Shown here: piece by piece, positions 28,272 through 43,617 of the stretch
How the letters are laid out: each line of letters starts with the position of its first letter
How positions within the stretch are numbered: position 1 is the first letter of the stretch
Source: Gammaproteobacteria bacterium
GTDB lineage: Bacteria > Pseudomonadota > Gammaproteobacteria > Magnimaribacterales > TMED112
Length of the DNA stretch: 64,000 nucleotides
Assembly (NCBI GenBank): GCA_038147295.1
Contig: JAYQTH010000002.1
Coordinates: 74,243 to 138,242, forward strand
Reading direction: 5' to 3'
Notes under the pieces: generated by a model
Told to the model about the DNA's origin: nothing
What the model saw: the letters and a program-made list of their open reading frames with translations, nothing else
Databases searched by the model: none
Made by a program: the position numbers and the translations under genes

Positions 28272-28676
28272 TTAGTCAGCAAAATGCTTTTCTTTCTCTT
28301 CATTGATTGTTTTGATTTCTGCACAAAATTCAGCAGTAGGCCTAGATATTAGTCTTGGTAGGCCAATAGGCTCACCCGACTCAAGACAAAACCCATAGTC
28401 ACCGGATTTAATCCTCAGCAAAGCTTTATCAATTTTTGGCAATAACTTAGATTCTCTCTCAACAATTCTTAAAAATAGCATTGAATCTATTTCATGCTGT
28501 GCTCGATCTACTTCATCGCTGCAAGCTGGTGGGTTGCTTAGCCTATCTTTAGCTTCTTTTATGTGTTCCAAAGTTTCTTTTTTTAACTCTATTAAAAGAT
28601 CTTTGAAGAACTCTAATTGCTCCTTATTCATATAATTTTTCTTAGGAGCTTTTAATATTTTTTCTTTTGTAAGCAT
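28272..28676 (-). CDS. dksA: RNA polymerase-binding factor DksA, 2-Cys (non-C4) variant
   Basis: 134 aa. Coiled-coil with the acidic tip ..SDEVDRAQHE... The C-terminal region GFCLESGEPIGLPRLISRPTAEFCAEIK aligns to E. coli [28 protein letters not shown] with 2 of the 4 Cys replaced. Confidence 0.85.
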   Translation of the reverse strand: MLTKEKILKAPKKNYMNKEQLEFFKDLLIELKKETLEHIKEAKDRLSNPPACSDEVDRAQHEIDSMLFLRIVERESKLLPKIDKALLRIKSGDYGFCLESGEPIGLPRLISRPTAEFCAEIKTINEEKEKHFAD

Positions 28677-28736: not shown

Positions 28737-29975
28737 TTAAGAATTTGATCGACTGATATTCTTTGAAATATTGGCTCCGAGGCCAACTAAGAATAATGCT
28801 AATGGAATAATAGCCAATGGAGCTGTATATAAAACCAACCCAAGTGTTAATAGTGAATTAAATAAAAGGCCACCTGTGGCATCACCCAACCTGTTTGTAA
28901 AAGTATCAATGAATACCGTTGATTTATATTTTTCCTTTTGTGAAAGCGTTGTGTAAACTGCCTCTCTTGCTGGTTTATTAAGGCCATATTCAAATGGTCT
29001 CATGACACCTTGCAGGATCAGAAAGATCACCACTCCTGAATTGCTCAACAAATATCCAGAGAAATGGCCTGAAATTGCTAGAAATGCACCTACAAAAAGT
29101 ATGCCGTAAATAGTTAATACAAACCTTATGCCTAGGAACTTGGACCTCAAAATCAGAGATGTAAGGAAAATTTGAGTAAAAAGCGTAAGCAAAGGCACAA
29201 ATTGATCTGCCTGACCAAAGACTTTTGTTTTTTCAGCTGAAGTAGCTGCGTAAGCATTTACAATTTCAAGCTGGAAAAACCACATAGCTGTAGATAAGCA
29301 GGTCCATATGAAAGCATATAAGATAAAACTTCGTATCAATGGATTGTTTTTTATTTGAATAAACTGCTCAAATACTTCTTCCATTGAGCTATCCTTTCTA
29401 GAGCTTAAGTCGTTCTCATCCCTTTTTATTAATGATGAAAAATATACTGCCAATATTAAGGAGGTAACGGTAATGATTAATGAAAGAATTTGTTTGTCGT
29501 AAAGATAATTGCTAACTAGAAAGCCAGCACAGGAAGCGCCGAAAGAACCACAAGCACTAATTAAACCAAAATATTTTTTTCCCCCTTCGATATCAAAAGA
29601 GCTAACTGTTAGTGCCCAAAAAATTGCAACTATAAAAAAATTGAAGATGTTATACCAAACATAAAAAATAGCTTTAATTAAAAATAGATCCGGAAAAAAA
29701 ACATAGAACCATAAAAAAATTAGTAAATTAGAAATAAAAAATCCGTAAATGTAGATCGCAATTCTATTTTGCTTAATTTTTGAAACTATGAACGAATAGA
29801 GTGGATTAACTAAAAGCATCAATAGCACAACAATGAAAAGATAAAAAGTTAATTCCGAAGTTCCAATATCAGCTGCAATAGTATTTCTAAATGGCCTTAA
29901 AACGAATAATGAAAAAAGAACAAAAAAGAAAAACAAGCCAGAGAAGATTGTATTTTTAGAAAAGAATGATCCCAT
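28737..29975 (-). CDS. multi-pass transporter, MFS-like (N-terminus reminiscent of Npt1/TLC-type carriers)
   Basis: 412 aa with about 12 hydrophobic segments. Family assignment from ..VLRPFRNTIAADIG.. is weak. Confidence 0.45.
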   Translation of the reverse strand: MGSFFSKNTIFSGLFFFFVLFSLFVLRPFRNTIAADIGTSELTFYLFIVVLLMLLVNPLYSFIVSKIKQNRIAIYIYGFFISNLLIFLWFYVFFPDLFLIKAIFYVWYNIFNFFIVAIFWALTVSSFDIEGGKKYFGLISACGSFGASCAGFLVSNYLYDKQILSLIITVTSLILAVYFSSLIKRDENDLSSRKDSSMEEVFEQFIQIKNNPLIRSFILYAFIWTCLSTAMWFFQLEIVNAYAATSAEKTKVFGQADQFVPLLTLFTQIFLTSLILRSKFLGIRFVLTIYGILFVGAFLAISGHFSGYLLSNSGVVIFLILQGVMRPFEYGLNKPAREAVYTTLSQKEKYKSTVFIDTFTNRLGDATGGLLFNSLLTLGLVLYTAPLAIIPLALFLVGLGANISKNISRSNS

Positions 29976-30046: not shown

Positions 30047-30409
30047 ATGGTAGAAGAGTTAATCAACAATTATCCATCTTTAAGAGGTTTCATTTTTGGC
30101 TTTGTCCATGTTTTTATCACCGTCATTGGTTACTACACAGGCTGGAGCATTAACAGGCTATTGAAGGTTGCAAGCAGAGGCTATATTGCTGGCATTATCG
30201 GAGCAGCAATGGCACACATAGTAGCTGATTTGGTAGCTTCAATTATTGACCCATCAATAAGACCAATGACGCTTGGGATAATTTTAGGTGGCACACTACC
30301 ACTCTTAATGATTCCAATATTTGAGAAATATCTAGTAAAAAGCAAGGATCACATCATGGTCGGTGACCATGAAGATATAGAAAAAGATCTAAATAAAGAT
30401 CACAAATAG
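30047..30409 (+). CDS. hypothetical membrane protein
   Basis: 120 aa. Three hydrophobic segments and a His/Asp-containing tail (HIMVGDHEDIEKDLNKDHK). No family recognised. Confidence 0.45.
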   Translation: MVEELINNYPSLRGFIFGFVHVFITVIGYYTGWSINRLLKVASRGYIAGIIGAAMAHIVADLVASIIDPSIRPMTLGIILGGTLPLLMIPIFEKYLVKSKDHIMVGDHEDIEKDLNKDHK

Positions 30410-30411
30410 CC

Positions 30412-31668
30412 CTACTTGCAAACAGAGAGTTCAAGCTCAGATACGCCAATAGCTTCTGACATGGCAAAAAATACATCGGTGTTATCTAGGATACCTGAAA
30501 AATTTTCTGCTCCAGGACCATAGGCAAAAATTGGAACCATCGCGCCGGTATGACCGCCTCTGCCTACTGCAGTATTCCATGTGGCTTTAATATTTTTTGA
30601 TGCTTGATACCTTTTGTTGTCTTGCTCAATAAGTAGGCCTCCAGTCTCATGATCGGCTGTTACCAATACCAAAGTATCTTCTCTTGATTCTGCAAAATCT
30701 AAAGCAGCATTTACTACTTCATTGAATTCATCCATTTGCGCAATCATTCCAATGAAATCGTTATCGTGCGAACGCCAATCAATTTGGGAGCCCTCTGCCA
30801 TAATAAAAAAACCTCTGCAATTTTGATTTTGTATTGTTTGATTTGATAGCTGGTAAGCGTAATTAAACATCTGCAACAATGATGGATCGCTATCAACCAA
30901 ACCAAGTTCCTCTTGAGCAAATAGGCCAAAAACTTTGGAGTCCAAAGAGTTTGGTATATTTTCTAAATCGTCTGTCGACTTTAAAAAAACATAGTCCTTG
31001 ACCATTCTCTGTACAAAGTTATTTTCATCTTTTCTTAAACCGCCTAAAGTTTCTGGAATAAAGAAGCCTCTTCCACCTCCTAATACAATGTGATTTTTTG
31101 AATAGAAGATATCAGAGGCAATTGCATCGGTGTTGTATCGCGATGTATTGTGCGCTGCAAACGATGCTGGTGTGGCATGCGTTATCTCAGATGTAGCAAT
31201 GATCGAATTAATATAGCCTCTTTCAAATAATATCTCTGTAATATTGGGAACCGATGAGCCATCTGGTGCTGTGCCAATGTATCGGTTCTTAGTTTTAACT
31301 CCTGTGCTATATGCTGTAGCTGAAGCAGCTGAGTCAGTTACCAAACTATCAACCGCATGTGTTTTAACAAGGCCTGAAGCAGAGAATCTATCAAATGCAG
31401 TAATAAAATTAGGGCCGCCCTTGGTTACTCGATAAGCTGCTATATGGTTTGAGCCCATACCATCGCCTATGAGTAAAATTATATTTTTTGCTTTAGAAGA
31501 AACTGGAGCTATTTTTTTTTGATTTACTGTTTGATCAAAATCAAAGTCAATTAACTCCATATCCTTCTCAGGCACACTAATGAGTAATGGAGCATATTGA
31601 TTGATTAAAAAAAATGTCGCAAAGGCACTTAAAGCAATAGTTAATAGGTACTTAAAGAAGGTCTTCAT
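30412..31668 (-). CDS. phoA: alkaline phosphatase (PhoA family)
   Basis: 418 aa with a signal peptide. LIGDGMG, the active-site DSAASATAYSTG, ..ADHETGG.. and ..HTG.. metal ligands. Confidence 0.88.
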   Translation of the reverse strand: MKTFFKYLLTIALSAFATFFLINQYAPLLISVPEKDMELIDFDFDQTVNQKKIAPVSSKAKNIILLIGDGMGSNHIAAYRVTKGGPNFITAFDRFSASGLVKTHAVDSLVTDSAASATAYSTGVKTKNRYIGTAPDGSSVPNITEILFERGYINSIIATSEITHATPASFAAHNTSRYNTDAIASDIFYSKNHIVLGGGRGFFIPETLGGLRKDENNFVQRMVKDYVFLKSTDDLENIPNSLDSKVFGLFAQEELGLVDSDPSLLQMFNYAYQLSNQTIQNQNCRGFFIMAEGSQIDWRSHDNDFIGMIAQMDEFNEVVNAALDFAESREDTLVLVTADHETGGLLIEQDNKRYQASKNIKATWNTAVGRGGHTGAMVPIFAYGPGAENFSGILDNTDVFFAMSEAIGVSELELSVCK

Positions 31669-32477
31669 TTAGTGTCTAAGGCACTATCTTTGAGTTTTAA
31701 TTGTTGATTTTTTGGCAATGAGTAATCAAAATTTATCAATGCACCTTCCCATGCTCCATAAGTTGGATTGGCAAACATATACCAAGATGTGCCCCAATAA
31801 TCTTTGTATTTTTTTGCAATATTGACTCTATCTTTTGGAGGTAAAAGATTTTCCTCTATGTCGACAAAATCTCCAAAATTATCACCAAACATCATCAATA
31901 TTCGGTAATCTTTTGCTATAAGTTCTCTTCTGGAAGTTTTATTAGAGCCCCAACCGTTCTCTCCTTTTGATAATATTAGATCCAACTTTGATGAGAGCCT
32001 AAAACCTAATTTATCAAAATTATTTATTGTAGCTTGCTCAATTTCTAGCACTCTATTTGTAACAAAGAATACTTCAACCCCTTTTGATAAAGCATACTCC
32101 ATGAATTCTTTTGCTCCAGGCATGAATTCTGCTTGCTCTTCTTTAGCCCATTCAATCCAACCATCTGGGTATGAGCTGCCATTGCGTATTAGGCGAGCTT
32201 GATAAGCGATGTTATCCAAAACAGTCTGATCAACATCTAAAATAATTGCAGGTGGTTTATTCTGATATTTGCCTGTTTGCTCAAGAGCTGCAGTATGATT
32301 CTTATCCGCTATCAATGCATCAAGATTATCCTGTGCTGACTTATATATGGTCTGTGAATTTGCATATGCTTCTGCTGAACTTTGGGCAAATAAAGTTGCC
32401 ATCAAGGATTGATGTTCTTTGCTATCAGAGTAGCTGATAAGAGATAAAGTTAAGAATAAAAACAGTGCCCTTTTCAT
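31665..32477 (-). CDS. class C acid phosphatase / 5'-nucleotidase, lipoprotein e(P4) family (HAD IIIB)
   Basis: 270 aa with a signal peptide. DVDQTVLDN (DDDD motif part 1), ..FGDNFGDF.. and ..YWGTSWYMFANPTYGAWE... ATGA overlap with phoA. Confidence 0.8.
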   Translation of the reverse strand: MKRALFLFLTLSLISYSDSKEHQSLMATLFAQSSAEAYANSQTIYKSAQDNLDALIADKNHTAALEQTGKYQNKPPAIILDVDQTVLDNIAYQARLIRNGSSYPDGWIEWAKEEQAEFMPGAKEFMEYALSKGVEVFFVTNRVLEIEQATINNFDKLGFRLSSKLDLILSKGENGWGSNKTSRRELIAKDYRILMMFGDNFGDFVDIEENLLPPKDRVNIAKKYKDYWGTSWYMFANPTYGAWEGALINFDYSLPKNQQLKLKDSALDTK

Positions 32478-32525
32478 ACCGTTCTCTATTCTAATAGATG
32501 GGAAATAAAAGTGGTTAATATTGAT

Positions 32526-35114
32526 TTACTTTTTTGGAGATAATTCAAACTGGATATTTATCATACGTCCTCTCGGATCATGCACCCTAGTATCAAAACT
32601 AAAGTCAGGCGCATCGTAAAGCAAAGGCGGCTTCTCATCCAACAGATTAATGAATGCTAAGGAACCTATGAGGTCAAGATTTTCAAAATAATTACCAAAA
32701 CTCCTCTTTATAGAAAGATCAAACATTAAGGAAGAGTCTATCTTCGATCTGTAACCGATATTTAAGGCAGATTCTGGTATTGCCCTATTATTTTTGTAGC
32801 TGTCTATAAACCTTGCGATAAGCCCAAATTGATAGTCTTGATATTTCCAATCTAAAAAGCTGTTTATCCTCTTTTTGGGTAATGAGTGGATGTTTGAATC
32901 AAAATTATATCTTCCAACTCTATTTATAAGTTTTCCACTCTCACCCCCTTCTTGCAAAGATGGAGTTAAAAATTCAGAAATTTGGGTGGCTTTTACAGCA
33001 AAGTCCAATTGCCCATAATCACCGAGCTGAAAAACTTTTTCATACGAAAAATCAAGCCCAGAGACATCCGTTACTTCCTCATTGATGTAGGTTGTTGTAA
33101 CTCCAATTAAATCTCCAAGCTCATTTCTAGTGATGCTTGGGCCATATGGGTCATTAATGAGTTTAGCTTGAGCACTTTCAGCAATAATTCTGCCTTTGTA
33201 ATTTATATTCCAGAAATCAAGAGAAATAGCTTGGTTTTCGATCTTCCAGATAAAACCATAATTTTGATTTGTTGCCGTAGAAGGTTGTAAATTTGGATTA
33301 CCAATTTGCGCTTGTCTAACGAAGATACTGGCATCAAAATCTCGCACACTGCCAAGATTGATTTCATTGGAAAACATTTGCGCCATTGATGGCATAGAGA
33401 AAGAAGTGCCACGTGAAAACCTGATTACAAATGAGTCACTAAACAAGGTTGTAAGCGCAATTTTTGGGTTAAAGGATGAATCATTTTTAAAATTTTCGTA
33501 CCTACCTGAAACTTGTAAATCCACAAGATTTTGTAATTCTGTTTTAGTTTCAATAAACAGGGCGCTTTTATTTCTATTGGCATCGACATTTTGACCACCA
33601 CCAAGAAAAAATAAATCTGCTACTCTCAATAGCTTACCGCTAGCATCAAATTCCGTTCTCGCCAGGTCGTTGTAGGTAATTTTTAATGCTTCATTAGCCA
33701 CCTGCGCTCCAAATACAAAAGAAAAATTTGAGTTAAATTGGGAAGATCCAATTAAATCGAGCGAGGTTAAGTTGCCAATTTTCTCTGATTTTTCCGATCC
33801 TCTTACATAATTCACTAAACTTTCACTGTTGAGATTGGGTTCAAAAATATTCCACCTCTCATTGCCATTAACGCCTCCCCTTCCTTGCATCGCATCTTGG
33901 AAGCGTGAATCAATAACATCTGGTCGATTATGAAAGTTTTTATGTTCGCTGGTAGTCAGAGATAATTCAAAATCATAATCATCTACAGTAGTAAAAAAAG
34001 TATAGTTAAAGTGATATTGGCTAATATCTTTGGGAGAAAATGGTGAGGGATATTGCGATCCCAGCGGCCGCCCATACCATCTCACAGGAACATTAAAAGG
34101 AGATGAGCCTTCTCCAGGCTCAATAAGTCGTGATAAGTAAGGCAAAGCTGGGTACGATGGCGACTGTGGATTATCAATGACTCTAATATTTGATGTAATT
34201 AAAGAAATATTATGAATCTCATTTGAAGCACTTATATAAAATTTTGAATGATCTTCCTCATTGACGATATTAAATCTGTTGCCATAAAGGAATCTACAAA
34301 ACCCACTTAAAATTCCACCATTCTCTACACAATTTGGATCTGGCACAATCTGACCCTCTTCATATGATCCACTATAAAGACCATCTTCAATTTCATCTGC
34401 ACTCGTTACAATAAATGTATTGCCTAAACCACTTATAGCTAATTCGGCTATACCATCTATTTCAGAAGCAGATAAGGGCGACCTATTCAGCAAATTTGCG
34501 CCTAAAACCAAATCCCAATTTCCTAAAGTTTCACCAAACAAGAAACCAATATTTTGATCTTTTTGGTTGTAGTTTGTCGTTGTTTGATCCCCAAACCTTA
34601 GCTTATAACCATCGAATTTTTTGTAAGTAATAAAATTTACAACTCCGGCAACGGCATCTGAACCATACAGTGATGTTGCTCCTTCTTTAAGGATCTCAAT
34701 TCTTTCAAAAGCAATTTCAGGGATAATGTGAGCGTCTATGTATCCCTCACCATCGTTTGAAGGTGTGCCAGCAAAGGTATGTCTTTTTGAATTAAGCAAC
34801 AGGAGCGTTGAAGCTTGATCCAGCCCACGCAATGTAATTGAAGACATGCCTTGATCGATGCCCCCTAGGGTGTTTGCCTGAAAATTGGATCCAGATGCTG
34901 AACTTAAGTATTTGCTTATCTCTGCAATGTTTGTGATGTTTAGGTTTAAATAATCTTCTTTTTGAATTATTTCTGTAGGTGTTAAATTTGCTCCCTCATC
35001 GCCTATATAAGAACCAGTAATAACGACTTCTTCAATATCATCATCAGGGAAAATAAATCCTGAAAAGGAAAATAAGAGTTGTAACAATGTTGCCTGTATT
35101 AGTTTTTTAAGCAT
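32526..35114 (-). CDS. TonB-dependent receptor
   Basis: 862 aa. Signal peptide, DDDIEEVVITGSY TonB-box region, plug (..ITLRGL.., ..IEILKEGATSLYGSDAVAGVVNFIT..) and a long beta-barrel. Confidence 0.9.
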   Translation of the reverse strand: MLKKLIQATLLQLLFSFSGFIFPDDDIEEVVITGSYIGDEGANLTPTEIIQKEDYLNLNITNIAEISKYLSSASGSNFQANTLGGIDQGMSSITLRGLDQASTLLLLNSKRHTFAGTPSNDGEGYIDAHIIPEIAFERIEILKEGATSLYGSDAVAGVVNFITYKKFDGYKLRFGDQTTTNYNQKDQNIGFLFGETLGNWDLVLGANLLNRSPLSASEIDGIAELAISGLGNTFIVTSADEIEDGLYSGSYEEGQIVPDPNCVENGGILSGFCRFLYGNRFNIVNEEDHSKFYISASNEIHNISLITSNIRVIDNPQSPSYPALPYLSRLIEPGEGSSPFNVPVRWYGRPLGSQYPSPFSPKDISQYHFNYTFFTTVDDYDFELSLTTSEHKNFHNRPDVIDSRFQDAMQGRGGVNGNERWNIFEPNLNSESLVNYVRGSEKSEKIGNLTSLDLIGSSQFNSNFSFVFGAQVANEALKITYNDLARTEFDASGKLLRVADLFFLGGGQNVDANRNKSALFIETKTELQNLVDLQVSGRYENFKNDSSFNPKIALTTLFSDSFVIRFSRGTSFSMPSMAQMFSNEINLGSVRDFDASIFVRQAQIGNPNLQPSTATNQNYGFIWKIENQAISLDFWNINYKGRIIAESAQAKLINDPYGPSITRNELGDLIGVTTTYINEEVTDVSGLDFSYEKVFQLGDYGQLDFAVKATQISEFLTPSLQEGGESGKLINRVGRYNFDSNIHSLPKKRINSFLDWKYQDYQFGLIARFIDSYKNNRAIPESALNIGYRSKIDSSLMFDLSIKRSFGNYFENLDLIGSLAFINLLDEKPPLLYDAPDFSFDTRVHDPRGRMINIQFELSPKK

Positions 35115-35129
35115 CGAGAGAAATAATAC

Positions 35130-35147
35130 AAGCTTTTGGAAAAGCTT
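35130..35147. repeat. 8-bp inverted repeat with 2-nt centre (AAGCTTTT GG AAAAGCTT), function unknown
   Basis: Read directly from the sequence. Lies 16 nt upstream of the TBDR start codon at 35114. Confidence 0.5.
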
Positions 35148-35171
35148 CCTAATTTAAGAAGGAATAAACGA

Positions 35172-35191
35172 GAGAGGGCGATTGCCCTCTC
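35172..35191 (-). terminator. putative intrinsic terminator after the HE-rich TBDR
   Basis: The minus-strand RNA gives GAGAGGGC-AAUC-GCCCUCUC (8-bp GC-rich stem) followed by UCGUUUAUUCCUUCUU. It sits 16 nt after the stop at 35207. Confidence 0.6.
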
Positions 35192-35206
35192 ACATTATTA
35201 GAAGAA

Positions 35207-37465
35207 TTAAAACTTCAGGCTAAATTTAATACCTATGTTTTTGCCTGGAAGTGGAACTTCATCTTTGACAAAAGATGAATGGTTCCTTGCCACTTCATCA
35301 AGCAAGTTATTCCCAAACAAAGATACATTTAGCTTGCTGTTACTACCTGCAAACAGCTTTCCTAGGTCGTAACTCTTTGTAAGTCTTGCATCAAGCATCT
35401 GATACCCTTTAGTTGGAGTTTCATATTCATTAATATCTTTTTGAGTCTTAACATCTTTAAAAGATATGGCTCCAGAGAATCCATTATTGCTTTCATAAAT
35501 TGCAGTAACAATATTTCTTTTTGGAACTATACGAGGCACAAATCCTCCACCATTAGCAAACTCAGCTGTAACACTGTCCATAGCATAAGTAAAAATAAAG
35601 TTGCCATTTGGTAAAACAACATTTCTTCCTACTTCAAACTCATAGCCATAGAAGTCAGCATCTTTCTGCATATAGTTGGATAAGATCAATCCTCCATGAT
35701 CATGATGCTCTTCGCCTTCATGTTCTTCATCTTCATGCTCTTCGTGCTCTTCCTCAGATTCATCTTGAAGATAAATATAATTATCAACTGCATTACTAAA
35801 GTAGGAAAGATCAGCAAAAAATTCGCCTCTTGCCCAACTCAATGACAGGTCTGTATTATTTGATCTTTCTTCTTCAAGATTTACATCACCAACTTCATAT
35901 CTTGAAGTGGCTAGATGAGGTCCATTTATAAATAGTTCAACAGCTGAGGGTGCTCTAGCTACACTGGCAAAATTTAAGCTTAAGGATAAATTTTCATTTA
36001 AATCAAAATCTATGCCCCCTGCAAAACTTAAAGCACTAAAGTCAGGGTTAAAAAATTCTACCTCGCCTTCATGCTCCTCATGCTCATCTTCGTGCTCTTC
36101 TCCCTCATGCTCATCTTCGTGATGCTCTTCCTCCATTATTGAACCCTCTCTATCTATAAGGTCATAGCGAACACCTAAATCGACATGCCCAAACCCCATC
36201 TCTTTTCCAAGATAAAGTCCAAAAGTAGCCTCAGAACTTGTAACTGGCAACATATAGGCTTCTTCACCAAAAATTGATACTTCTTCTTCAGCTAAATTTA
36301 TAGAAATTTTTCGTGATAAATCGTTAGATGAAAAATCAAATATTGCGCCATATTCGAGTGCATCGTTTTTAAATAAGGTAGGACCTTCGGCATGATCATG
36401 TACATCCAGCATCTCGTCCTCATGTTCCTCGCCTTCATGATCTTCTTCAGCATGTTGTTCTGTTAAAGAGTAATCTGTATCTCTTAAAAAATAATCAATC
36501 TTGCTGATCAAAGATGAATTTAAATTTAAAGAACCTTCTAAATTAACTACATTTGATTCAGTGGTTGAAAATATTCTTTCATCCTCATGTTCATCATGTC
36601 CTTCTTCATGTTCCTCGCCTTCATGATCCTCTTCATGCTCGTCATGACCTTCATGACCCTCTCCATGAAATGGAATGCCATAGGATGACTCAAGATTATT
36701 AAATGACAATCCAACATAGCCCCAGTCGCCTGTTTTTGATAAACCAAATCTTGCTGAGGTAGAACCATAGTCTGAGTTTGCAAGAAAGCTTAGATCTTCT
36801 TCATGCTCCTCTTCGTGTTCCTCTTCTTCATGTTCTTCTTCCATATGCATAATTGCACCGTCAGGAACGTCATAGTTTGCAAAATCTGAATCTTTAAAAG
36901 CTGCAGAGACATTGAATCCTGCAAAATTGCCTGAGAAGTTCAAACCAATGCTAGAGCCATCATTAACAGATTGTGATTCAGAACTTAATGCGAGGCTTAA
37001 CTTATCAAAATCTTCTTGAGCAATTGTATTGTCGACAATATTTATAAGCCCACCTATAGCACCATTAGCATATAGTAGAGATGAGGGCCCTCTTACAATT
37101 TCTATTTGCTGAATGTTGTTTAAGTCAACCTCGTTAATATGGTCTCCTCCAAGTGCAGAAACATCCCTAACAACCATGCCATTATTGAGGATCTTTACTC
37201 TACTTCCAGATAAACCACGAATAATTGGCTGACCAACACCAAAACCATAATCAGATGAAGCAACGCCCAGTAAGTTGTCCAGTGCTTCACCTAAACTTCT
37301 TGTGCCATCATTTTCAATATCTTCACCTGAGACAATGTGCAAAGGGTCTTCAAGTTCATTTGACGTTTGATCTAAAATTGATGACTGAACTACTACCTCC
37401 TCGATATCTTCCTGTGAGAAAAATACAAAGGGTATTAAAACTAAACTTATAAAAAATCTTTTCAT
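35207..37465 (-). CDS. TonB-dependent receptor with five His/Glu-rich low-complexity insertions (putative metal receptor)
   Basis: 752 aa. Signal peptide, EDIEEVVV, plug (IIRGLSGSRV, IEIVRGPSSLLYANGAIGGLINI) and a terminal ..IKFSLKF. HE tracts at aa 207-224, 267-296, 338-359, 444-468 and 569-590. SD AAGGAGG upstream. Confidence 0.9.
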   Translation of the reverse strand: MKRFFISLVLIPFVFFSQEDIEEVVVQSSILDQTSNELEDPLHIVSGEDIENDGTRSLGEALDNLLGVASSDYGFGVGQPIIRGLSGSRVKILNNGMVVRDVSALGGDHINEVDLNNIQQIEIVRGPSSLLYANGAIGGLINIVDNTIAQEDFDKLSLALSSESQSVNDGSSIGLNFSGNFAGFNVSAAFKDSDFANYDVPDGAIMHMEEEHEEEEHEEEHEEDLSFLANSDYGSTSARFGLSKTGDWGYVGLSFNNLESSYGIPFHGEGHEGHDEHEEDHEGEEHEEGHDEHEDERIFSTTESNVVNLEGSLNLNSSLISKIDYFLRDTDYSLTEQHAEEDHEGEEHEDEMLDVHDHAEGPTLFKNDALEYGAIFDFSSNDLSRKISINLAEEEVSIFGEEAYMLPVTSSEATFGLYLGKEMGFGHVDLGVRYDLIDREGSIMEEEHHEDEHEGEEHEDEHEEHEGEVEFFNPDFSALSFAGGIDFDLNENLSLSLNFASVARAPSAVELFINGPHLATSRYEVGDVNLEEERSNNTDLSLSWARGEFFADLSYFSNAVDNYIYLQDESEEEHEEHEDEEHEGEEHHDHGGLILSNYMQKDADFYGYEFEVGRNVVLPNGNFIFTYAMDSVTAEFANGGGFVPRIVPKRNIVTAIYESNNGFSGAISFKDVKTQKDINEYETPTKGYQMLDARLTKSYDLGKLFAGSNSKLNVSLFGNNLLDEVARNHSSFVKDEVPLPGKNIGIKFSLKF

Positions 37466-37515
37466 ATTCTTAAACCTCCTTATTTGTAAAATATTTGAAA
37501 ACTAATTTGAGAAAA

Positions 37516-37776
37516 TTAGACCAATGGAGGGGCTCTGGGATTAAAGCCTTTGAGGGTTTCAAATTTTTCCGGAAAAATTGAAACATCTAGAAAGAAGAAA
37601 TCTATTTTTTCAGCTAGCTCAAGCTTATATGGGGTACTTGCTGCAAACTCATTTTCACATACATGACATTCATAAGTTAGGACTTCTTGTTCGGAATAGT
37701 CATGGCTAATTTCATGCAAAGGAGTGCTGACAGCAAAAAGCATGCCTAAAAGAATTATTAAATTCTTCAACTTCAT
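37516..37776 (-). CDS. small secreted Cys/His-containing protein, unknown function
   Basis: 86 aa. Signal peptide (LIILLGMLFAVS), then PLHEISHDYSEQEVLTYECHVCENEF. Lies 50 nt upstream of, and co-oriented with, the HE-rich TBDR. Confidence 0.5.
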   Translation of the reverse strand: MKLKNLIILLGMLFAVSTPLHEISHDYSEQEVLTYECHVCENEFAASTPYKLELAEKIDFFFLDVSIFPEKFETLKGFNPRAPPLV

Positions 37777-37800: not shown

Positions 37801-37947
37801 TTAGTGAATATCTCTTTTTTTCTTTTTGATTCTTTCTCTTTTTAGCTTCTCGTAAAGATTTTGCGTTCTTTCTTCAACAATTTTTTTTGTTGCGTGCCTT
37901 CTTTCTCTAGCTCTTTCCGATTTTTGTATTCTTTCGCTTTTATTCAT
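37801..37947 (-). CDS. candidate 48-aa highly basic small protein (below the ORF-track length cut-off)
   Basis: Minus strand: AAAGGGGGAAAAA-ATG, then MNKSERIQKSERARERRHATKKIVEERTQNLYEKLKRERIKKKKRDIH*. Strong SD, and it fits exactly between the symporter and the 86-aa ORF. Confidence 0.4.
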   Translation of the reverse strand: MNKSERIQKSERARERRHATKKIVEERTQNLYEKLKRERIKKKKRDIH

Positions 37948-37999: not shown

Positions 38000-39748
38000 T
38001 TATGGCTGTCTTATCTCATCAATCATTTTATAAACCTCGGATGGAGGTTTTGGAAAATATTTTGTCGCTGTAATAATTATCAATAAGTTGGCAAGCATAC
38101 CAATGACTCCAAAACCTTCAGGCGATATTCCTAAAAACCAATGGGACGCATTATTTAATTCTGGTGCGTAGAACTTAAAGTAAACAATATAACTTAATGT
38201 TATCGTTAGTCCTGCAAGCATACCCGCTATGACGCCTTCTTTATTTGCAGCTTTATAAAATATCCCCATAAGCAAGGCAGGGAAAATAGTAGAAGCGGCG
38301 AGACCAAATGCTAACGCAACCACTTGGGCAACAAACCCTGGTGGATTGATGCCAAAATATCCAGCAATAATAACTGCAGCTGTTGCAGCTATGCGAGCAT
38401 ATAGCAATTCTTGTTTTTCACTAATATTGGGTCGGAAAGTCTTTTTCATTAAGTCATGAGATATTGAAGAAGATATAACTAGCAGTAACCCAGCGGCGGT
38501 TGATAGGGCAGCAGCTAAAGCGCCAGCTGCAACTAGTGCAAATACCCATCCAGGGAGACTGGCAATCTCAGGATTTGCCAAAACCATTATGTCTCTATCG
38601 ATGTATAGCTCATTTTTATTTGATAAATTTTGCTCATTGGATACCACTCTTTCACCATGTGCTCCTAACTCATCTGAAAAATTTATTTTCACTCCCTCAA
38701 ATGCATTACCAACGGAATATTGTATTGCTCCATCATTGTTTTTATCTTGCCAAGCTACTAAACCGATTTGCTCCCAATTCTTAAACCATTCCGGTGCTTC
38801 AACATACTTAGTATCCTGCAGTGAGTCAGTCAAATTAACTCGAGCAAACGCTCCAACCGCTGGAGCTGTTGTAAAAAGCAAAGCTATAAAAACTAAAGCA
38901 TACCCTACCGACTTACGAGCATCTCTTACTTTAGGCACTGTAAAAAAACGGACAATAACATGTGGTAAACCAGCTGTACCAAACATAAGAGCTGCTGTGA
39001 TACAAAAAACATCTAGGGTGCTTTTTGTGTTTTCGGTGTAAGGCACAAACCCAAGCTCTGTAGTAATTCGATCTAGTTTATCGAGCAAATATTCAGAACC
39101 GCCAACAACAGTGTCTCCAAAACCTAATTGGGGTACTGGATTACCAGTAACTAATATCGAAATAAATATGGCTGGAACCAGGTAGGCAAAAATCAAAACA
39201 CAATACTGTGCAACTTGGGTATAGGTTATACCTTTCATCCCACCCATAACAGCGTAAAAGAAAACGATGACCATCCCAATGATTACGCCTAAGTTAATAT
39301 CAACCTCTAGAAATCTAGAAAAGACTATACCGACGCCTCTCATTTGGCCTGCAATGTAAGTAAATGAAATAAAGATGAGGCAAAGAACAGCTACAATCCG
39401 AGCGACATCAGAATAGTACCTAGTCCCAATGAATTCAGGAACGGTATACTTACCAAATTTTCTTAGGTAAGGCGCAAGCAATAAAGCAAGCAGCACGTAC
39501 CCACCTGTCCACCCCATAAGATAAACTGAACCATCTCGTCCCGAAAAAGCAATGATGCCAGCAATGGAAATAAAAGAAGCTGCCGACATCCAATCTGCAG
39601 CAGTAGCCATACCATTTGCAACGGGATGCACTCCTTTGCCTGCGACATAGAAATCACCGGTATCTTTAGCCTTGCTCCAGAAAGCGATACCGATATACAA
39701 AGCAAAGGTAATACCAACAAATAGATAAGTTAATAGTTGAGTGCTCAT
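38000..39748 (-). CDS. sodium:solute symporter (ActP-like, DUF4212-associated subfamily)
   Basis: 582 aa, SSF-family multi-TM protein. Its start overlaps the stop of the small DUF4212 subunit gene by 4 nt. Confidence 0.8.
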   Translation of the reverse strand: MSTQLLTYLFVGITFALYIGIAFWSKAKDTGDFYVAGKGVHPVANGMATAADWMSAASFISIAGIIAFSGRDGSVYLMGWTGGYVLLALLLAPYLRKFGKYTVPEFIGTRYYSDVARIVAVLCLIFISFTYIAGQMRGVGIVFSRFLEVDINLGVIIGMVIVFFYAVMGGMKGITYTQVAQYCVLIFAYLVPAIFISILVTGNPVPQLGFGDTVVGGSEYLLDKLDRITTELGFVPYTENTKSTLDVFCITAALMFGTAGLPHVIVRFFTVPKVRDARKSVGYALVFIALLFTTAPAVGAFARVNLTDSLQDTKYVEAPEWFKNWEQIGLVAWQDKNNDGAIQYSVGNAFEGVKINFSDELGAHGERVVSNEQNLSNKNELYIDRDIMVLANPEIASLPGWVFALVAAGALAAALSTAAGLLLVISSSISHDLMKKTFRPNISEKQELLYARIAATAAVIIAGYFGINPPGFVAQVVALAFGLAASTIFPALLMGIFYKAANKEGVIAGMLAGLTITLSYIVYFKFYAPELNNASHWFLGISPEGFGVIGMLANLLIIITATKYFPKPPSEVYKMIDEIRQP

Positions 39749-39987
39749 TGTTTATTTTTCTTGTATTTATCGTCGAGCTTATTAAGCAAATGCACGTATA
39801 TAAAAATTAAAATCACAAAAAAGAAAATGCTGCCCTGTTGAGCAAACCAGAAGCCTAACTTAAAACCGCCAAACTTAAACTGATCTAGAAAATCAGATAA
39901 TAAAATTCCAAAACCAAATGAAACAATGAACCATATAGTAAGCAGAATAGAAATGATCTTTAAATTTTCCTGCCAGTATTTGTTCAC
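39745..39987 (-). CDS. sodium:solute symporter small subunit (DUF4212)
   Basis: 80 aa with a GTG start and two TM helices. ..GFKLGFWFAQQGSIFFFVILIFIY.. is typical of DUF4212 partners of ActP-like permeases. Confidence 0.7.
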   Translation of the reverse strand: MNKYWQENLKIISILLTIWFIVSFGFGILLSDFLDQFKFGGFKLGFWFAQQGSIFFFVILIFIYVHLLNKLDDKYKKNKQ

Positions 39988-40040: not shown

Positions 40041-40832
40041 TTACTGCAGCCGCTTTTTAAGCTCTAAATATCTATCTCGATATTTATCATCCTCATTGGA
40101 TGCAGTGGCAACAATCCATAAGTATTCAACATATAAAGCCAACTTTTTAAATGAATCTAGTACATCTAAATCCATTGCGTTATGAGTGCCAGTGTAGGAA
40201 TTTAAAAAATACTTCTCTTCATCTTGTGACAGATCCAATGCATTAAGGAGAGTTGCAATATCATAATAAGGATGATTTAACCCAGCATAGTCCCAGTCTA
40301 TGAAATAAATGTTATCTGTATAAATTATGTTTGACAGGTTTAAGTCGTTATGACAAAAAACTAGCTTGCTCTTGTCAGCAGTAACTTTTTTTATAAAGCT
40401 TTTTGCATTCTTGCTTACTGAGTCTAGAGCTTGCTCACCAATGGTAAGGAAATATTTCTCTATTTTTTCCTCAAAAAGCTCATACTCATAATTATCAATT
40501 TTTGTGCTATGCAGATCTTGTAACTTTAATGCAATGTCATAAAGAATTTTTTTATTTGGGTGAGGTGCCATTGATGTGCCGTCAATTTTTTCATAAATAA
40601 CTAAATTAGCCTCTTTATCATGATCCAAAAATTTCGGTGTTAGATTATATGGTGCCAACTTGCGATGGATGCTCTGTTCCAGATCTATATTGTTCTCAAA
40701 AAGATTGTGTTTTTTAAATTTTAAGATCGCATCCATGTTGTGGAACCTGCAGGTATAGACTTCTGAAAACTTTGTTTTTTGAAGAATGCCAATGATAGTA
40801 AGATCTCTCTTAAATTTTCCTAAGTTGATCAT
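40041..40832 (-). CDS. APH/choline-kinase-fold phosphotransferase, thiamine kinase (ThiK)-like
   Basis: 263 aa. Brenner motif CHNDLNLSNII and IDWDYAG. Last gene of the TPP-riboswitch operon. Confidence 0.6.
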   Translation of the reverse strand: MINLGKFKRDLTIIGILQKTKFSEVYTCRFHNMDAILKFKKHNLFENNIDLEQSIHRKLAPYNLTPKFLDHDKEANLVIYEKIDGTSMAPHPNKKILYDIALKLQDLHSTKIDNYEYELFEEKIEKYFLTIGEQALDSVSKNAKSFIKKVTADKSKLVFCHNDLNLSNIIYTDNIYFIDWDYAGLNHPYYDIATLLNALDLSQDEEKYFLNSYTGTHNAMDLDVLDSFKKLALYVEYLWIVATASNEDDKYRDRYLELKKRLQ

Positions 40833-40836
40833 ATGA

Positions 40837-41418
40837 TTAGGCGTTTGACCTCATAGCTTGTACCCAGGCCCTGTATCCAAAAACAATAATTACTAGATAT
40901 ATGACAAATAAGACTGCTGTTGGATAAAGTTCACGACTTAAAAAAAGAAAAACAGATACAAAATCAATGACAAACCAATATATCCAATTCTCTAGAACTT
41001 TTTTTGCTACCATAAATGTTGCAAGAATGGCGCCCCAAGTTGTAAATGAATCTATGTATGGGGCAACAGCATTTGAATTGTGTGAAAGCAAATATCCAGA
41101 AATTACAACTATGCATAGAAGAGATCCAATTGCATAAAAATGTTGTTTCTTATTCCATCTTCTTATGCTGAGTTTATCTTGAGCTGATCTTTTGTCCCAC
41201 TGCATCCAACCGTAGATACCCATTCCAACATAAAAGATTTGTAGCGCCGATTCCATTAACAGCCCCGCATACAGCATGACAAATAAATACATTAATGAGC
41301 TTATTATCCACGCGATCCAACACCTAATATCTTGCTTCAATGCCAACAATAGATAAATAATTGCAAGAATAGCAGCCAAGATTTCAAACCAAACGGAATT
41401 TAAGAAGTTAGAAATCAT
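40837..41418 (-). CDS. PnuC-family transporter (PnuT-like, predicted thiamine/thiamine-precursor uptake)
   Basis: 193 aa with 6-7 TM helices and PnuC-like W-rich motifs (..GIYGWMQW.., ..NWIYWFVID..). Overlaps the upstream TBDR by 11 nt. Confidence 0.75.
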   Translation of the reverse strand: MISNFLNSVWFEILAAILAIIYLLLALKQDIRCWIAWIISSLMYLFVMLYAGLLMESALQIFYVGMGIYGWMQWDKRSAQDKLSIRRWNKKQHFYAIGSLLCIVVISGYLLSHNSNAVAPYIDSFTTWGAILATFMVAKKVLENWIYWFVIDFVSVFLFLSRELYPTAVLFVIYLVIIVFGYRAWVQAMRSNA

Positions 41419-43495: not shown

Positions 43496-43575
43496 GCAAT
43501 TCCTCCGCCATTATTGTATGGATCAGGTTCAAAGGGTTCCTTAAAAGATCTCAGGTAAAACCTCCCCTTTGCACT
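43496..43575 (-). promoter_or_regulatory. TPP (THI-box) riboswitch
   Basis: The minus strand reads UGCAAAGGGGAGGUUUUACCUGAGAUCUUUUAAGGAACCCUUUGAACCUGAUCCAUACAAUAAUGGCGGAGGAAUUGC-AUG. It has the conserved GGGG, CUGAGA, ACCC, ACCUGAUC..AUAAUGG.CG.AGGA elements. P1 (UGCAA/UUGCA) reaches the start codon, and GGAGGA doubles as the SD. Confidence 0.85.
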
Positions 43576-43617
43576 TAAGTTAAGAATAATTTTTTTTGGA
43601 CTATAAATCTAGGTTGA

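Follow-up and report, generated by a model that had tools for sequence, protein, structure and literature searches.

A putative CruR/CutF-type leader upstream of a ZnuD-like receptor gene and an adjoining phosphatase operon in a SAR86 locus

Introduction

CruR (Bp2923, DUF2946) of Bordetella pertussis is the exported, poorly structured product of an upstream open reading frame (uORF) that precedes the gene for the TonB-dependent receptor BfrG (PMC9426467). It carries a CXXC motif, a fixed spacer of 45 residues (45 ± 1-2 within DUF2946) and an RAPP motif three residues from its end, and copper on the nascent chain relieves its arrest (PMC9426467). A 2025 survey reported that RAPP/RGPP uORFs are enriched upstream of TonB-dependent receptors and that CruR arrests in vitro (PMC12992588). 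In the CutF-CutO system of Rhodobacter capsulatus, the leader is combined with a stem-loop that shields the Shine-Dalgarno (SD) sequence of the next gene and is opened by a paused ribosome (PMC9973294). Here we analyze a block of five minus-strand genes at positions 30412-37776 of a 64,000-nucleotide stretch of contig JAYQTH010000002.1, referred to throughout as the window. The block opens with an 86-residue open reading frame (ORF) that is best read as a regulatory leader of the CruR/CutF type, followed by the gene for a TonB-dependent receptor resembling the zinc receptor ZnuD, a second receptor gene and two phosphatase genes.

Few uncultured heterotrophs of the surface ocean are as abundant as SAR86, whose regulation is little known. 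The window belongs to this group, since matching metagenome-assembled genomes carry 94-95% identical copies of its 862-residue receptor. Neither zinc nor ZnuD is mentioned in the studies of CruR, CutF and RAPP uORFs cited above (PMC9426467, PMC9973294, PMC12992588), our literature search found no link between BfrG and ZnuD, and no riboswitch has been described for zinc (Roy et al.).

A preliminary description of the window had treated the five genes as a possible coupled locus for scavenging metal and organic phosphorus. The five genes, the ATGA overlap between the acid phosphatase stop and the phoA start (31665-31668), the 48-nucleotide (nt) gap between the second receptor gene and the acid phosphatase gene and a hairpin between the two receptor genes were all found exactly where it had placed them. 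Its gene assignments (two TonB-dependent receptors, a class C-type acid phosphatase and PhoA) also agreed with Pfam and NCBIfam, except that the acid phosphatase is related to e(P4) and is not e(P4) itself. The results below bear on how these genes may belong together and how they may be controlled. Related loci are identified by L numbers.

Results

An 86-residue ORF has the layout of a CruR/CutF-type leader

The first ORF of the block (37516-37776, minus strand) encodes 86 residues. A lysine-rich n-region and a hydrophobic stretch form its N-terminus, and a signal peptide is present in all aligned members of the family. These are followed by H21-x3-H25 (37702-37716), C37-x2-C40 (37657-37668), 40 further residues, R81-A-P-P84 (37525-37536), two residues and the stop codon. 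The preliminary description had called this product a Cys/His mini-protein; the Cys and His motifs are real, while the decisive C-terminal RAPP arrest motif had been overlooked. In an alignment of the SAR86 family, H25, C37, C40, R81, P83 and P84 are invariant. The overall identity of the most distant members is mostly 22-33%, with conservation confined to the signal peptide, the His pair, C-x2-C and the C-terminal RAPP. Among 120 family members, the Cys motif lies 40-41 residues from R[A/D/G]PP in every one of the 118 that have both, and the arrest motif ends two residues from the C-terminus in 114 of 118; RDPP, RGPP and QAPP occur as variants. RAPP is rare elsewhere, with three occurrences in 279,246 residues of long ORFs.

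A wider survey, in which metagenome contigs were scanned with an alignment of the ZnuD-like receptor, yielded 80 further loci with GC contents of 31-55%. With [RQ]xPP as a looser motif, 78 loci proved to have a leader of the same layout, as does L004, where the script had not picked it up. Only L085 lacks it, while upstream truncation prevented a judgment in eight loci. Clustering at 50% identity sorts the 68 distinct leaders into 24 clusters, all upstream of ZnuD-like receptors. The spacer measures 40-43 residues in 66 of the 68 across the whole GC range, and one to five residues separate the motif from the end. The leader comes first in the window and in 78 or more related loci, with a TonB-dependent receptor gene next; the gap between the two is 50 nt in the window, 26-52 nt in most lineages and 75-82 nt in one GC-rich clade. 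The ratio of nonsynonymous to synonymous substitutions (dN/dS) was 0.12-0.38 for seven pairs of leaders, so the ORF is under purifying selection; the window and L003, a near-identical pair, gave about 0.77.

Searches of Pfam and NCBIfam gave no match for the leader, and a homologue search retrieved only short unnamed proteins with no Pfam family. In an AlphaFold2 model the mean pLDDT is 52 and only the signal helix (residues 2-17) is confident, so that the leader is predicted to be disordered outside this helix. The ORF conforms to the rule used to find CutF-like leaders, namely fewer than 150 residues, a signal peptide, a PP in the last 15 residues and a gene downstream in the same orientation (PMC9973294). 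It shares with CruR its small size and first position, the export signal, the CXXC motif, a fixed spacer, RAPP two to three residues before the stop, a TonB-dependent receptor gene immediately downstream, the predicted lack of structure and, as we propose, a stalled state that switches the receptor on when the metal is scarce. It differs from CruR in having no DUF2946 match, a spacer of 40-43 rather than 45 residues and an additional conserved H-x3-H. Instead of 162 nt, most lineages have 26-52 nt between the two genes, the predicted read-out is SD sequestration in place of Rho-dependent termination, and the receptor is ZnuD-like. On balance, the 86-residue ORF is best read as a regulatory leader of the CruR/CutF type rather than as a Cys/His protein in its own right.

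We considered whether the product might instead work with the receptor as a metal-binding protein, periplasmic or secreted, in the manner of a metallochaperone or 'zincophore'. Its signal peptide and conserved His/Cys ligands, its invariable position next to the receptor gene and the purifying selection acting on it would all suit such a role. On the other hand, no ordered structure is predicted for it beyond the signal peptide, and its conservation sits mainly in the ligands and in an invariant RAPP whose distances to the Cys motif and to the stop are both fixed, which is the pattern of CruR and has no rationale in a chaperone. CruR and CutF, moreover, reportedly escaped detection in vivo and are presumed to undergo degradation (PMC9426467, PMC9973294). 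A partner role in place of a leader role is thus quite improbable, although the two are not mutually exclusive.

Upstream of the leader in two relatives there is a palindrome resembling Fur-family sites, at about 7230-7265 in L002 (TGATTATAATCA) and at about 7220-7283 in L009 (CAATTAATCAATTG). An extended -10 element (TGGTATAGT) lies 9 nt before the leader ATG in the same two loci, and the window does not have this arrangement. These features suggest a near-leaderless transcript and a possible additional metalloregulator site in some lineages.

The Shine-Dalgarno sequence of the receptor gene is predicted to pair with the arrest codons

The SD sequence of the ZnuD-like receptor gene, AAGGAGG, lies at 37475-37481 on the minus strand. 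In the minimum-free-energy fold, its GGAGG (37475-37479) pairs with CCUCC (37526-37530) in the codons for Pro83 and Pro84 of the leader, with an A/U hairpin between the two strands. The predicted SD pairing in the window is 0.99. We took the stall-site segment to begin with the Arg codon and to end six bases beyond the stop. It is predicted to pair with at least 75% of the SD bases in 51 of 60 non-identical loci, and the same is true of 18 of the 22 clusters that could be scored. The anti-SD falls where the Ala and Pro codons meet, where the two Pro codons meet or in the last codons. As the footprint of a ribosome extends downstream of its P site, the anti-SD is predicted always to fall inside the stretch that a ribosome stalled at RAPP would cover. 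The predicted SD pairing was 0.88 in loci with a leader and 0.64 in 52 control genes (Mann-Whitney p = 1.6e-6).

These features would be accommodated by the following mechanism. The ribosome would stall when RAP-tRNA occupies its P site and the codon for the final Pro has entered the A site. The exit tunnel is about 40 residues long, which is the length of the spacer, and the Cys/His site should therefore just be emerging when the ribosome stalls, with C-x2-C 40 residues back and H-x3-H further out. When the metal is scarce, the stalled ribosome would cover the Pro-Pro codons, leaving the SD free and the receptor translated. Binding of the metal to the nascent Cys/His site would relieve the stall, so that the leader is completed and exported; the SD hairpin would then re-form and synthesis of the receptor would fall. 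In engineered zinc-finger/SecM constructs, zinc-driven folding at the tunnel exit can reportedly release arrest.

Such a switch would act in the same direction as CruR and be read out as in CutF and SecM. In CutF, as predicted here, a stem-loop shields the downstream SD. CutF differs in having CxxxC, in activating a multicopper oxidase at high copper and in depending on export by the signal recognition particle and Sec; in the present locus the arrest codons themselves would be the anti-SD and the target is an uptake receptor. SecM-SecA (RAGP) likewise uses a leader with a signal peptide, whose C-terminal arrest exposes a downstream SD (PMC9426467, PMC12992588). SecM senses export activity, whereas the Cys/His site of the present leader suggests metal sensing.

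Several observations weigh against an arrest-controlled SD switch of this kind. With the DUF2946 model (PF11162, gathering score 23.7 bits), neither the window leader nor four relatives gave a match at E<=10. Two GC-richer leaders do match it below threshold, at 17.7 and 13 bits, aligned from CxxC to RAPP, which is a point in favor. Because these sub-threshold matches are the only ones, we leave the relation to CruR as either distant kinship or convergence, with the family outside DUF2946 by the Pfam test. The arrest and ligand motifs are not uniform either. QAPP replaces RAPP in one SAR86 clade (L037, L047, L051, L052, L055, L056, L062-L064, L068, L083 and L091), and some leaders have C-x2-S/F or a single Cys, the His residues being kept in all of them. 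In one GC-rich clade (L014, L026, L028, L029, L031, L034 and others), the one with the 75-82-nt intergenic region, a lone Cys (SCSVSV) is joined by another six residues ahead of RAPP, and there is an extra GC hairpin. Synonymous recoding of the leader keeps much of the SD pairing: the native sequence exceeded the recoded mean in 52 of 60 loci with a median rank of 0.175, which is modest support, since Ala-Pro-Pro codons pair with an SD almost regardless of codon choice. Three clusters show little predicted SD pairing, and the locus counts overstate independence because the loci are phylogenetically related. CruR itself works by Rho-dependent termination over a long intergenic region, a mechanism not predicted here, and we infer stalling and metal sensing from motifs and precedent.

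The receptor downstream of the leader is ZnuD-like, and zinc and copper are the candidate metals

The receptor gene next to the leader (35207-37465, minus strand) encodes 752 residues with TonB-dependent Plug and barrel domains in Pfam. The protein has 34 His, 100 Glu and 59 Asp. A regular-expression scan found four clusters rich in His and Glu (HE clusters) and an alignment showed a further one at about residues 337-358; the clusters are conserved in position. Its best named family is ZnuD (NF038289), with 228 bits over the full length (2.2e-67), below the cut-off of 950. ZnuD of Neisseria meningitidis (4RDR) is by far its best match in the PDB, at E = 7.5e-36 with the single sequence and 1.1e-49 with a profile. 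The high-affinity zinc site of ZnuD consists of Asp99, His100, Glu340 and His499 (PMC4557270). D108, H109 and H517 of the window receptor align with Asp99, His100 and His499 and are invariant in seven SAR86-type proteins; this matching assumes a constant offset of 14 between the 4RDR chain index and the published numbering, and the Glu340 region is unaligned. By this alignment the two receptors would have in common the plug Asp-His and the barrel His, and both have acidic/His-rich insertions (4RDR; PMC4557270). They differ in that the window receptor has several long HE clusters as against one loop-3 stretch, stays far below the family cut-off and lacks a recognizable Zur box, and control of ZnuD by a leader peptide is not reported in the literature searched.

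The alternative that the leader-receptor unit serves copper acquisition, as a true functional equivalent of CruR, has several points in its favor. All experimentally studied members of the leader class, CruR and CutF, sense copper (PMC9426467, PMC9973294), CxxC is a classic copper motif, and His/Glu-rich loops also bind Cu(II). The main hint of copper in the receptor family comes from gene neighborhoods. Six loci (L038, L060, L072, L079, L084 and L090) have the leader-receptor module directly after cox15-ctaB-sco1 and in the same orientation, at a distance of no more than about 20 nt in L060, and SCO1 is a copper chaperone for cytochrome oxidase. These six loci represent three leader clusters, and the arrangement is confined to one clade. 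Against copper, ZnuD is by far the nearest characterized receptor and three of its four zinc ligands are conserved, while the TonB-copper model TIGR01778 gives the 752-residue receptor only 28.9 bits. OprC-type copper sites use Cys and Met, whereas no Cys was seen in this receptor by eye. All leaders also have a conserved His beside the Cys, and this His-plus-Cys ligand set is nearer to a zinc site and would favor zinc. Zinc thus has close to an even chance of being the metal of the receptor, copper is a tentative but serious second candidate, and another metal or a mixed specificity is unlikely; the fuller proposal that the whole unit is a copper-acquisition system equivalent to CruR is held just as tentatively.

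A terminator-like hairpin and gene orders point to two units

Between the two receptor genes lies an intrinsic-terminator-like hairpin with an 8-bp GC-rich stem and a 4-nt loop (GAGAGGGC-aatc-GCCCTCTC, 35172-35191), which with its T-rich tail spans 35162-35191 on the minus strand. It is the best terminator-like site within 27.4-40.2 kb. A hairpin with a T-run follows the ZnuD-like gene, within about 70 nt of its stop, in 38 of 41 non-identical low-GC loci, and the stems have entirely different sequences in different lineages. We read the hairpin at 35162-35191 as a putative terminator that closes the leader-receptor unit. Exactly the leader and the ZnuD-like gene are missing from one SAR86 lineage (L006), which keeps a Lys/Arg-rich small ORF and the operon formed by the second receptor and phosphatase genes, so that leader, receptor and terminator behave as a self-contained module. 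The leader-receptor unit is also found in many lineages outside SAR86 with unrelated neighbors and no phosphatases. We propose that the block comprises two adjacent, separately controlled units, unit 1 from 37776 to about 35162 and unit 2 from 35114 to 30412, and put the probability of this reading at roughly 0.6.

The preliminary description had favored a single locus in which the HE-rich receptor imports zinc for PhoA and all genes are co-regulated under phosphorus and/or zinc limitation. PhoA-family enzymes do require zinc, the ZnuD-like unit adjoins the gene for the 862-residue receptor in almost all SAR86-type loci, and the terminator between the halves could leak. In one deeply divergent lineage (L093), furthermore, the full order of leader, ZnuD-like receptor, second receptor, acid phosphatase, PhoA and major facilitator superfamily (MFS) transporter recurs, even though the block proteins are only 48-57% identical to those of the window (MFS 68%). 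In several other lineages this order is broken. PhoA is absent from four lineages (L002, L005, L006 and L009), one of which (L006) has the operon without the ZnuD-like unit, and the ZnuD-like unit occurs without phosphatases in two of the three types of SAR86 locus (types II and III, below) and in all loci outside SAR86. The ZnuD-like unit has its own leader, and the terminator between the halves is structurally conserved. The adjacency of the two units is weak evidence, because synteny in SAR86 is generally high, and their co-orientation is uninformative because nearly all genes from about 25.9 to 43.5 kb share the minus strand, the exception being a 120-residue ORF (30047-30409). With the order broken in several lineages and different controls predicted for the two halves, a single zinc-for-PhoA locus under joint control is improbable.

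A search for the regulatory sites that joint control by zinc or phosphorus might involve was equally negative. Across the whole window, 0 matches within 3 mismatches were found to the gammaproteobacterial consensus of either the Zur box (ATGTTATAWTATAACAT), of which a divergent version may escape such a scan, or the Pho box (CTGTCATAWAWCTGTCAY). No riboswitch was detected in the block, either at the Rfam gathering threshold over the window or at E<=1 over 27.4-38.2 kb; the latter search gave only weak chance matches, such as L20_leader with 31 bits on the hairpin. A sigma-70 promoter scan returned fewer matches than did shuffled sequences and was discarded as uninformative. When the regions upstream of the 862-residue receptor gene were compared by eye, no motif was found that different lineages have in common. 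A perfect 18-bp palindrome (AAGCTTTTCCAAAAGCTT, 35130-35147, minus strand) lies after the terminator and ahead of the start of this gene, just upstream of a TATTAT hexamer resembling a -10 element. The L003 copy contains one mismatch and more distant lineages do not conserve the palindrome, which could be an operator or a chance feature.

The second unit resembles an operon for phosphoester uptake

Unit 2 starts with the gene for the second TonB-dependent receptor (32526-35114, minus strand), a generic receptor of 862 residues and the first gene of the phosphatase operon in the lineage type of the window. It has 3305 homologues, with identities of at least 56% among the 120 matches listed.

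The gene for a predicted exported acid phosphatase of 270 residues follows (31665-32477, minus strand). It matches Acid_phosphat_B (PF03767) with 127 bits (7.5e-37) and reaches 188 bits with the e(P4) model TIGR01533, below the cut-off of 216. Its best PDB matches are the class C enzymes 2I33 and 3PCT and e(P4) (3OCY/3ET4), and its DVDQTVLDN and FGDNFGDF align with the catalytic Asp motifs of 2I33. The sequence contains no Cys and so cannot be that of a lipoprotein; a lipobox, which the preliminary description had wished to see checked, is absent from both phosphatases. The enzyme shares with Haemophilus influenzae e(P4) (3ET4/3OCY) the HAD IIIB fold family and the Asp motifs. It differs from it in the missing lipobox and Cys and in being closer to the Bacillus anthracis enzyme (2I33), and the transporter that goes with it is not PnuC but NTT-like. 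By these comparisons it is an exported class C (HAD IIIB) enzyme related to e(P4) and not e(P4) itself. Class C acid phosphatases are magnesium-dependent HAD enzymes and not zinc enzymes, and e(P4) dephosphorylates nicotinamide mononucleotide and nucleotides in the periplasm before uptake across the inner membrane.

PhoA (418 residues; 30412-31668, minus strand) matches Alk_phosphatase (PF00245) with 251 bits against a cut-off of 24.4 and the E. coli PhoA equivalog model with 179 against 540 bits. Its sequence contains the catalytic Ser and metal-ligand motifs DSAASATA, GDGMG, DHETGG and GGHTG, and its best PDB match is the cold-active TAB5-type alkaline phosphatase 2IUC (1.2e-58).

Beyond phoA lies the gene for an MFS inner-membrane transporter of 412 residues (28737-29975, minus strand) with weak MFS_1 and TLC matches, the TLC score of the single sequence being 16.3 bits against a cut-off of 21. 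Among its 3209 homologues, distant members match TLC in 22 of 41 cases and TIGR00769 in 20 of 41. A profile of the family finds the NTT structures 9J3N (1.2e-23) and 9J3J (9.7e-20), followed by the next MFS structure at 1.6e-4. At about 410 residues the proteins are shorter than NTT/Tlc transporters (PF03219, TIGR00769; about 500-600 residues), and the family is probably a distant branch of these nucleotide transporters. In L002, L005, L006, L009, L010 and L093 the NTT-like gene overlaps or tightly follows the phosphatase gene or genes, and for this reason we assign it to the operon.

The window separates the two by a plus-strand gene for a membrane protein of 120 residues (30047-30409), convergent with phoA, which has only weak MscL/MntP matches. 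This gene occurs only in the window, L001, L003 and L013, and is 97-100% conserved, compared with 85-87% for PhoA in L001 and L003. In L093 and L010, which have no such ORF, the MFS gene follows PhoA after 10 nt. The 120-residue gene is a lineage-specific insertion that splits the NTT-like gene from the operon. The protein has a His/Asp-rich C-terminus, and its stop codon lies 2 nt from that of phoA.

Comparison of related loci distinguished three arrangements in SAR86. In type I loci with PhoA (the window, L001, L003, L013 and L093), the order is receptor, acid phosphatase, PhoA, the 412-residue MFS transporter, DksA and a DoxX-like gene. Type I loci without PhoA (L002, L005 and L009) have otherwise the same gene order, and L006 has neither PhoA nor the leader/ZnuD-like module. 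PhoA as a very recent insertion was ruled out by its presence in the deeply divergent L093 and L010; the full order in L093 at 48-57% identity implies that PhoA is old and was lost, or never gained, in some lineages. In eight or more lineages, the receptor, acid phosphatase, PhoA and MFS genes overlap or lie 0-48 nt apart, spacing typical of an operon. A homologue of the 862-residue receptor gene stands directly before the acid phosphatase gene in L001-L003, L005, L006, L009, L013 and L093. The earlier suggestion that this receptor feeds periplasmic phosphatases gains support from this tight packing with the acid phosphatase and NTT-like genes in several SAR86 lineages.

In the proposed route, the 862-residue receptor would import the substrate across the outer membrane, the phosphatases would dephosphorylate it in the periplasm, and the NTT-like transporter would take up the product across the inner membrane. 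The substrate would be nucleotides or similar phosphoesters; a nucleotide-type substrate is the most economical guess and comes near an even chance of being right. The arrangement recalls PUSI and PUSII of Flavobacterium (PusCD with PhoA1 or phosphodiesterases; PMC8115612), which also combine a TonB-dependent transporter, periplasmic phosphatases and inner-membrane organophosphate transporters. It differs from them in its gammaproteobacterial receptor without a SusD-like lipoprotein, its pairing of a class C acid phosphatase with PhoA and its NTT-like transporter.

The place of the 862-residue receptor in unit 2 is open to objection. The receptor has no characterized close relative, and the window has no match to the Pho box consensus. 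In the other SAR86 arrangements its homologue precedes RNase R or unrelated genes. Type II loci have the order ADH, leader, ZnuD-like receptor, receptor and RNase R, and type III loci have RNase R on the opposite strand, a QAPP leader, the ZnuD-like receptor and the receptor; no phosphatase gene is nearby in either. Since the receptor here sits beside the ZnuD-like unit in the absence of a phosphatase, it may belong with unit 1 or with neither unit. One could accordingly view it as a second metal or metallophore receptor of the metal unit, with a secondary link to the phosphatases; the trio of leader, ZnuD-like receptor and 862-residue receptor is kept in three SAR86 contexts, two of them without phosphatases. 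The receptor gene, however, lies behind the terminator with no leader of its own, persists in L006 without the ZnuD-like unit, and in loci of type I overlaps or directly adjoins the gene for the acid phosphatase. The protein showed no His/Cys-rich features by eye and no similarity to known metal receptors, and outside SAR86 its homologues are not beside ZnuD-like genes. Membership in the metal unit is therefore doubtful, and we keep the receptor in the phosphatase operon.

The overlapping pair of acid phosphatase and PhoA genes is also found in L093, L011 and L095. L010 probably has it too, since the PhoA start there is overlapped by a truncated upstream ORF of 49 residues. In L011 (7189-13278) and L095 (8712-16875) the pair has no TonB receptor and follows leuCD-like genes of the aconitase family; it adjoins divergent genes for Porin_5, PHO4, PhoU_div, a histidine kinase and a response regulator. 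The PHO4/PhoU and two-component neighbors fit a phosphorus-scavenging role of the phosphatase pair. Genes for other predicted phosphoesterases were seen near the block in relatives. A UshA-like 5'-nucleotidase gene (Metallophos + 5_nucleotid_C) lies about 5 kb upstream of the leader on the opposite strand in type II loci (L004, L007 and L008), and the gene for a purple-acid-phosphatase-like protein of 518 residues lies two to five genes upstream in type I loci (L002, L005, L006 and L009). None of the purple acid phosphatase, UshA, CIA30, ADH and RNase R neighbors of the relatives was found in the window.

Flanking genes

Between the leader and a symporter gene pair lies a conserved Lys/Arg-rich ORF of 48 residues that the preliminary description had overlooked (37801-37947, minus strand; MNKSERIQKSERARERRHATKK...). 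It is unannotated, has no significant Pfam match, is preceded by a GGGGGA ribosome-binding site and lies 24 nt upstream of the leader ORF. It is kept in L003, L013 and L006, where it has 59 residues and stands directly before the homologue of the 862-residue receptor gene.

The symporter pair (38000-39987, minus strand) consists of a VC_2705-type Na+/solute symporter (582 residues, TIGR03648, 850 bits) and its small subunit (DUF4212). It sits between the block and a three-gene set within 40041-43578, and is present in L002, L009 and L013 and absent from the closely related L003. The three-gene set lies downstream of a thiamine pyrophosphate riboswitch (RF00059, 58.8 bits, 43483-43578, minus strand) and encodes a TonB-dependent receptor of 695 residues, a PnuC-family protein (193 residues) and an APH/choline-kinase-like kinase (263 residues). 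It is probably a thiamine uptake operon, and is found directly upstream of the block in L003 and near it in L006.

On the other side of the block, the DksA homologue (28272-28676, minus strand) retains two of the four zinc-finger cysteines (C-x2-S ... C-x2-I), in which it resembles the zinc-independent DksA2 of Pseudomonas. Its conservation of 81-98% between SAR86 lineages suggests that this may be the housekeeping copy and an adaptation to low zinc.

Discussion

The comparisons above resolve the block into a leader-receptor module, probably closed by its own terminator, and a phosphatase operon. In the module, the apparently new features are a leader family outside DUF2946, a shorter fixed spacer, added His ligands, an anti-SD placed in the arrest codons, a ZnuD-type receptor and a wide distribution in marine bacteria. 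The phosphatase operon may be regarded as a gammaproteobacterial analogue of the PUS systems with an unusual NTT-like transporter. Neither unit would be categorically new. The two are neighbors in SAR86, and a hard-wired genomic link between zinc and phosphorus is not supported, which is relevant before such a link is used in biogeochemical arguments. Unit 2 suggests that SAR86 takes up nucleotide-type phosphoesters by a route of receptor, phosphatase and NTT-like transporter, and this would bear on the turnover of dissolved organic phosphorus.

The most specific form of our proposal is that the 86-residue ORF is the first zinc-responsive arrest peptide, in which zinc-driven folding of a His2-Cys2 site frees the RAPP stall and the anti-SD lies within the arrest codons. 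Taken as a whole this is rather unlikely on present comparisons. The characterized members of the leader class all sense copper, and a zinc sensor would extend the principle to a new metal. If the proposal is true, the ZnuD-type receptor of SAR86 and of numerous further marine lineages (24 leader clusters, GC 31-55%) is controlled by a zinc arrest peptide, which would replace transcriptional control of the Zur type in streamlined genomes. Whichever metal is sensed, metal uptake in SAR86 and many marine bacteria would, if the switch operates, be set by a protein-based translational device and not by a transcription factor. The leader would then also serve as a sequence marker of cellular metal status in metatranscriptomes or ribosome profiles.

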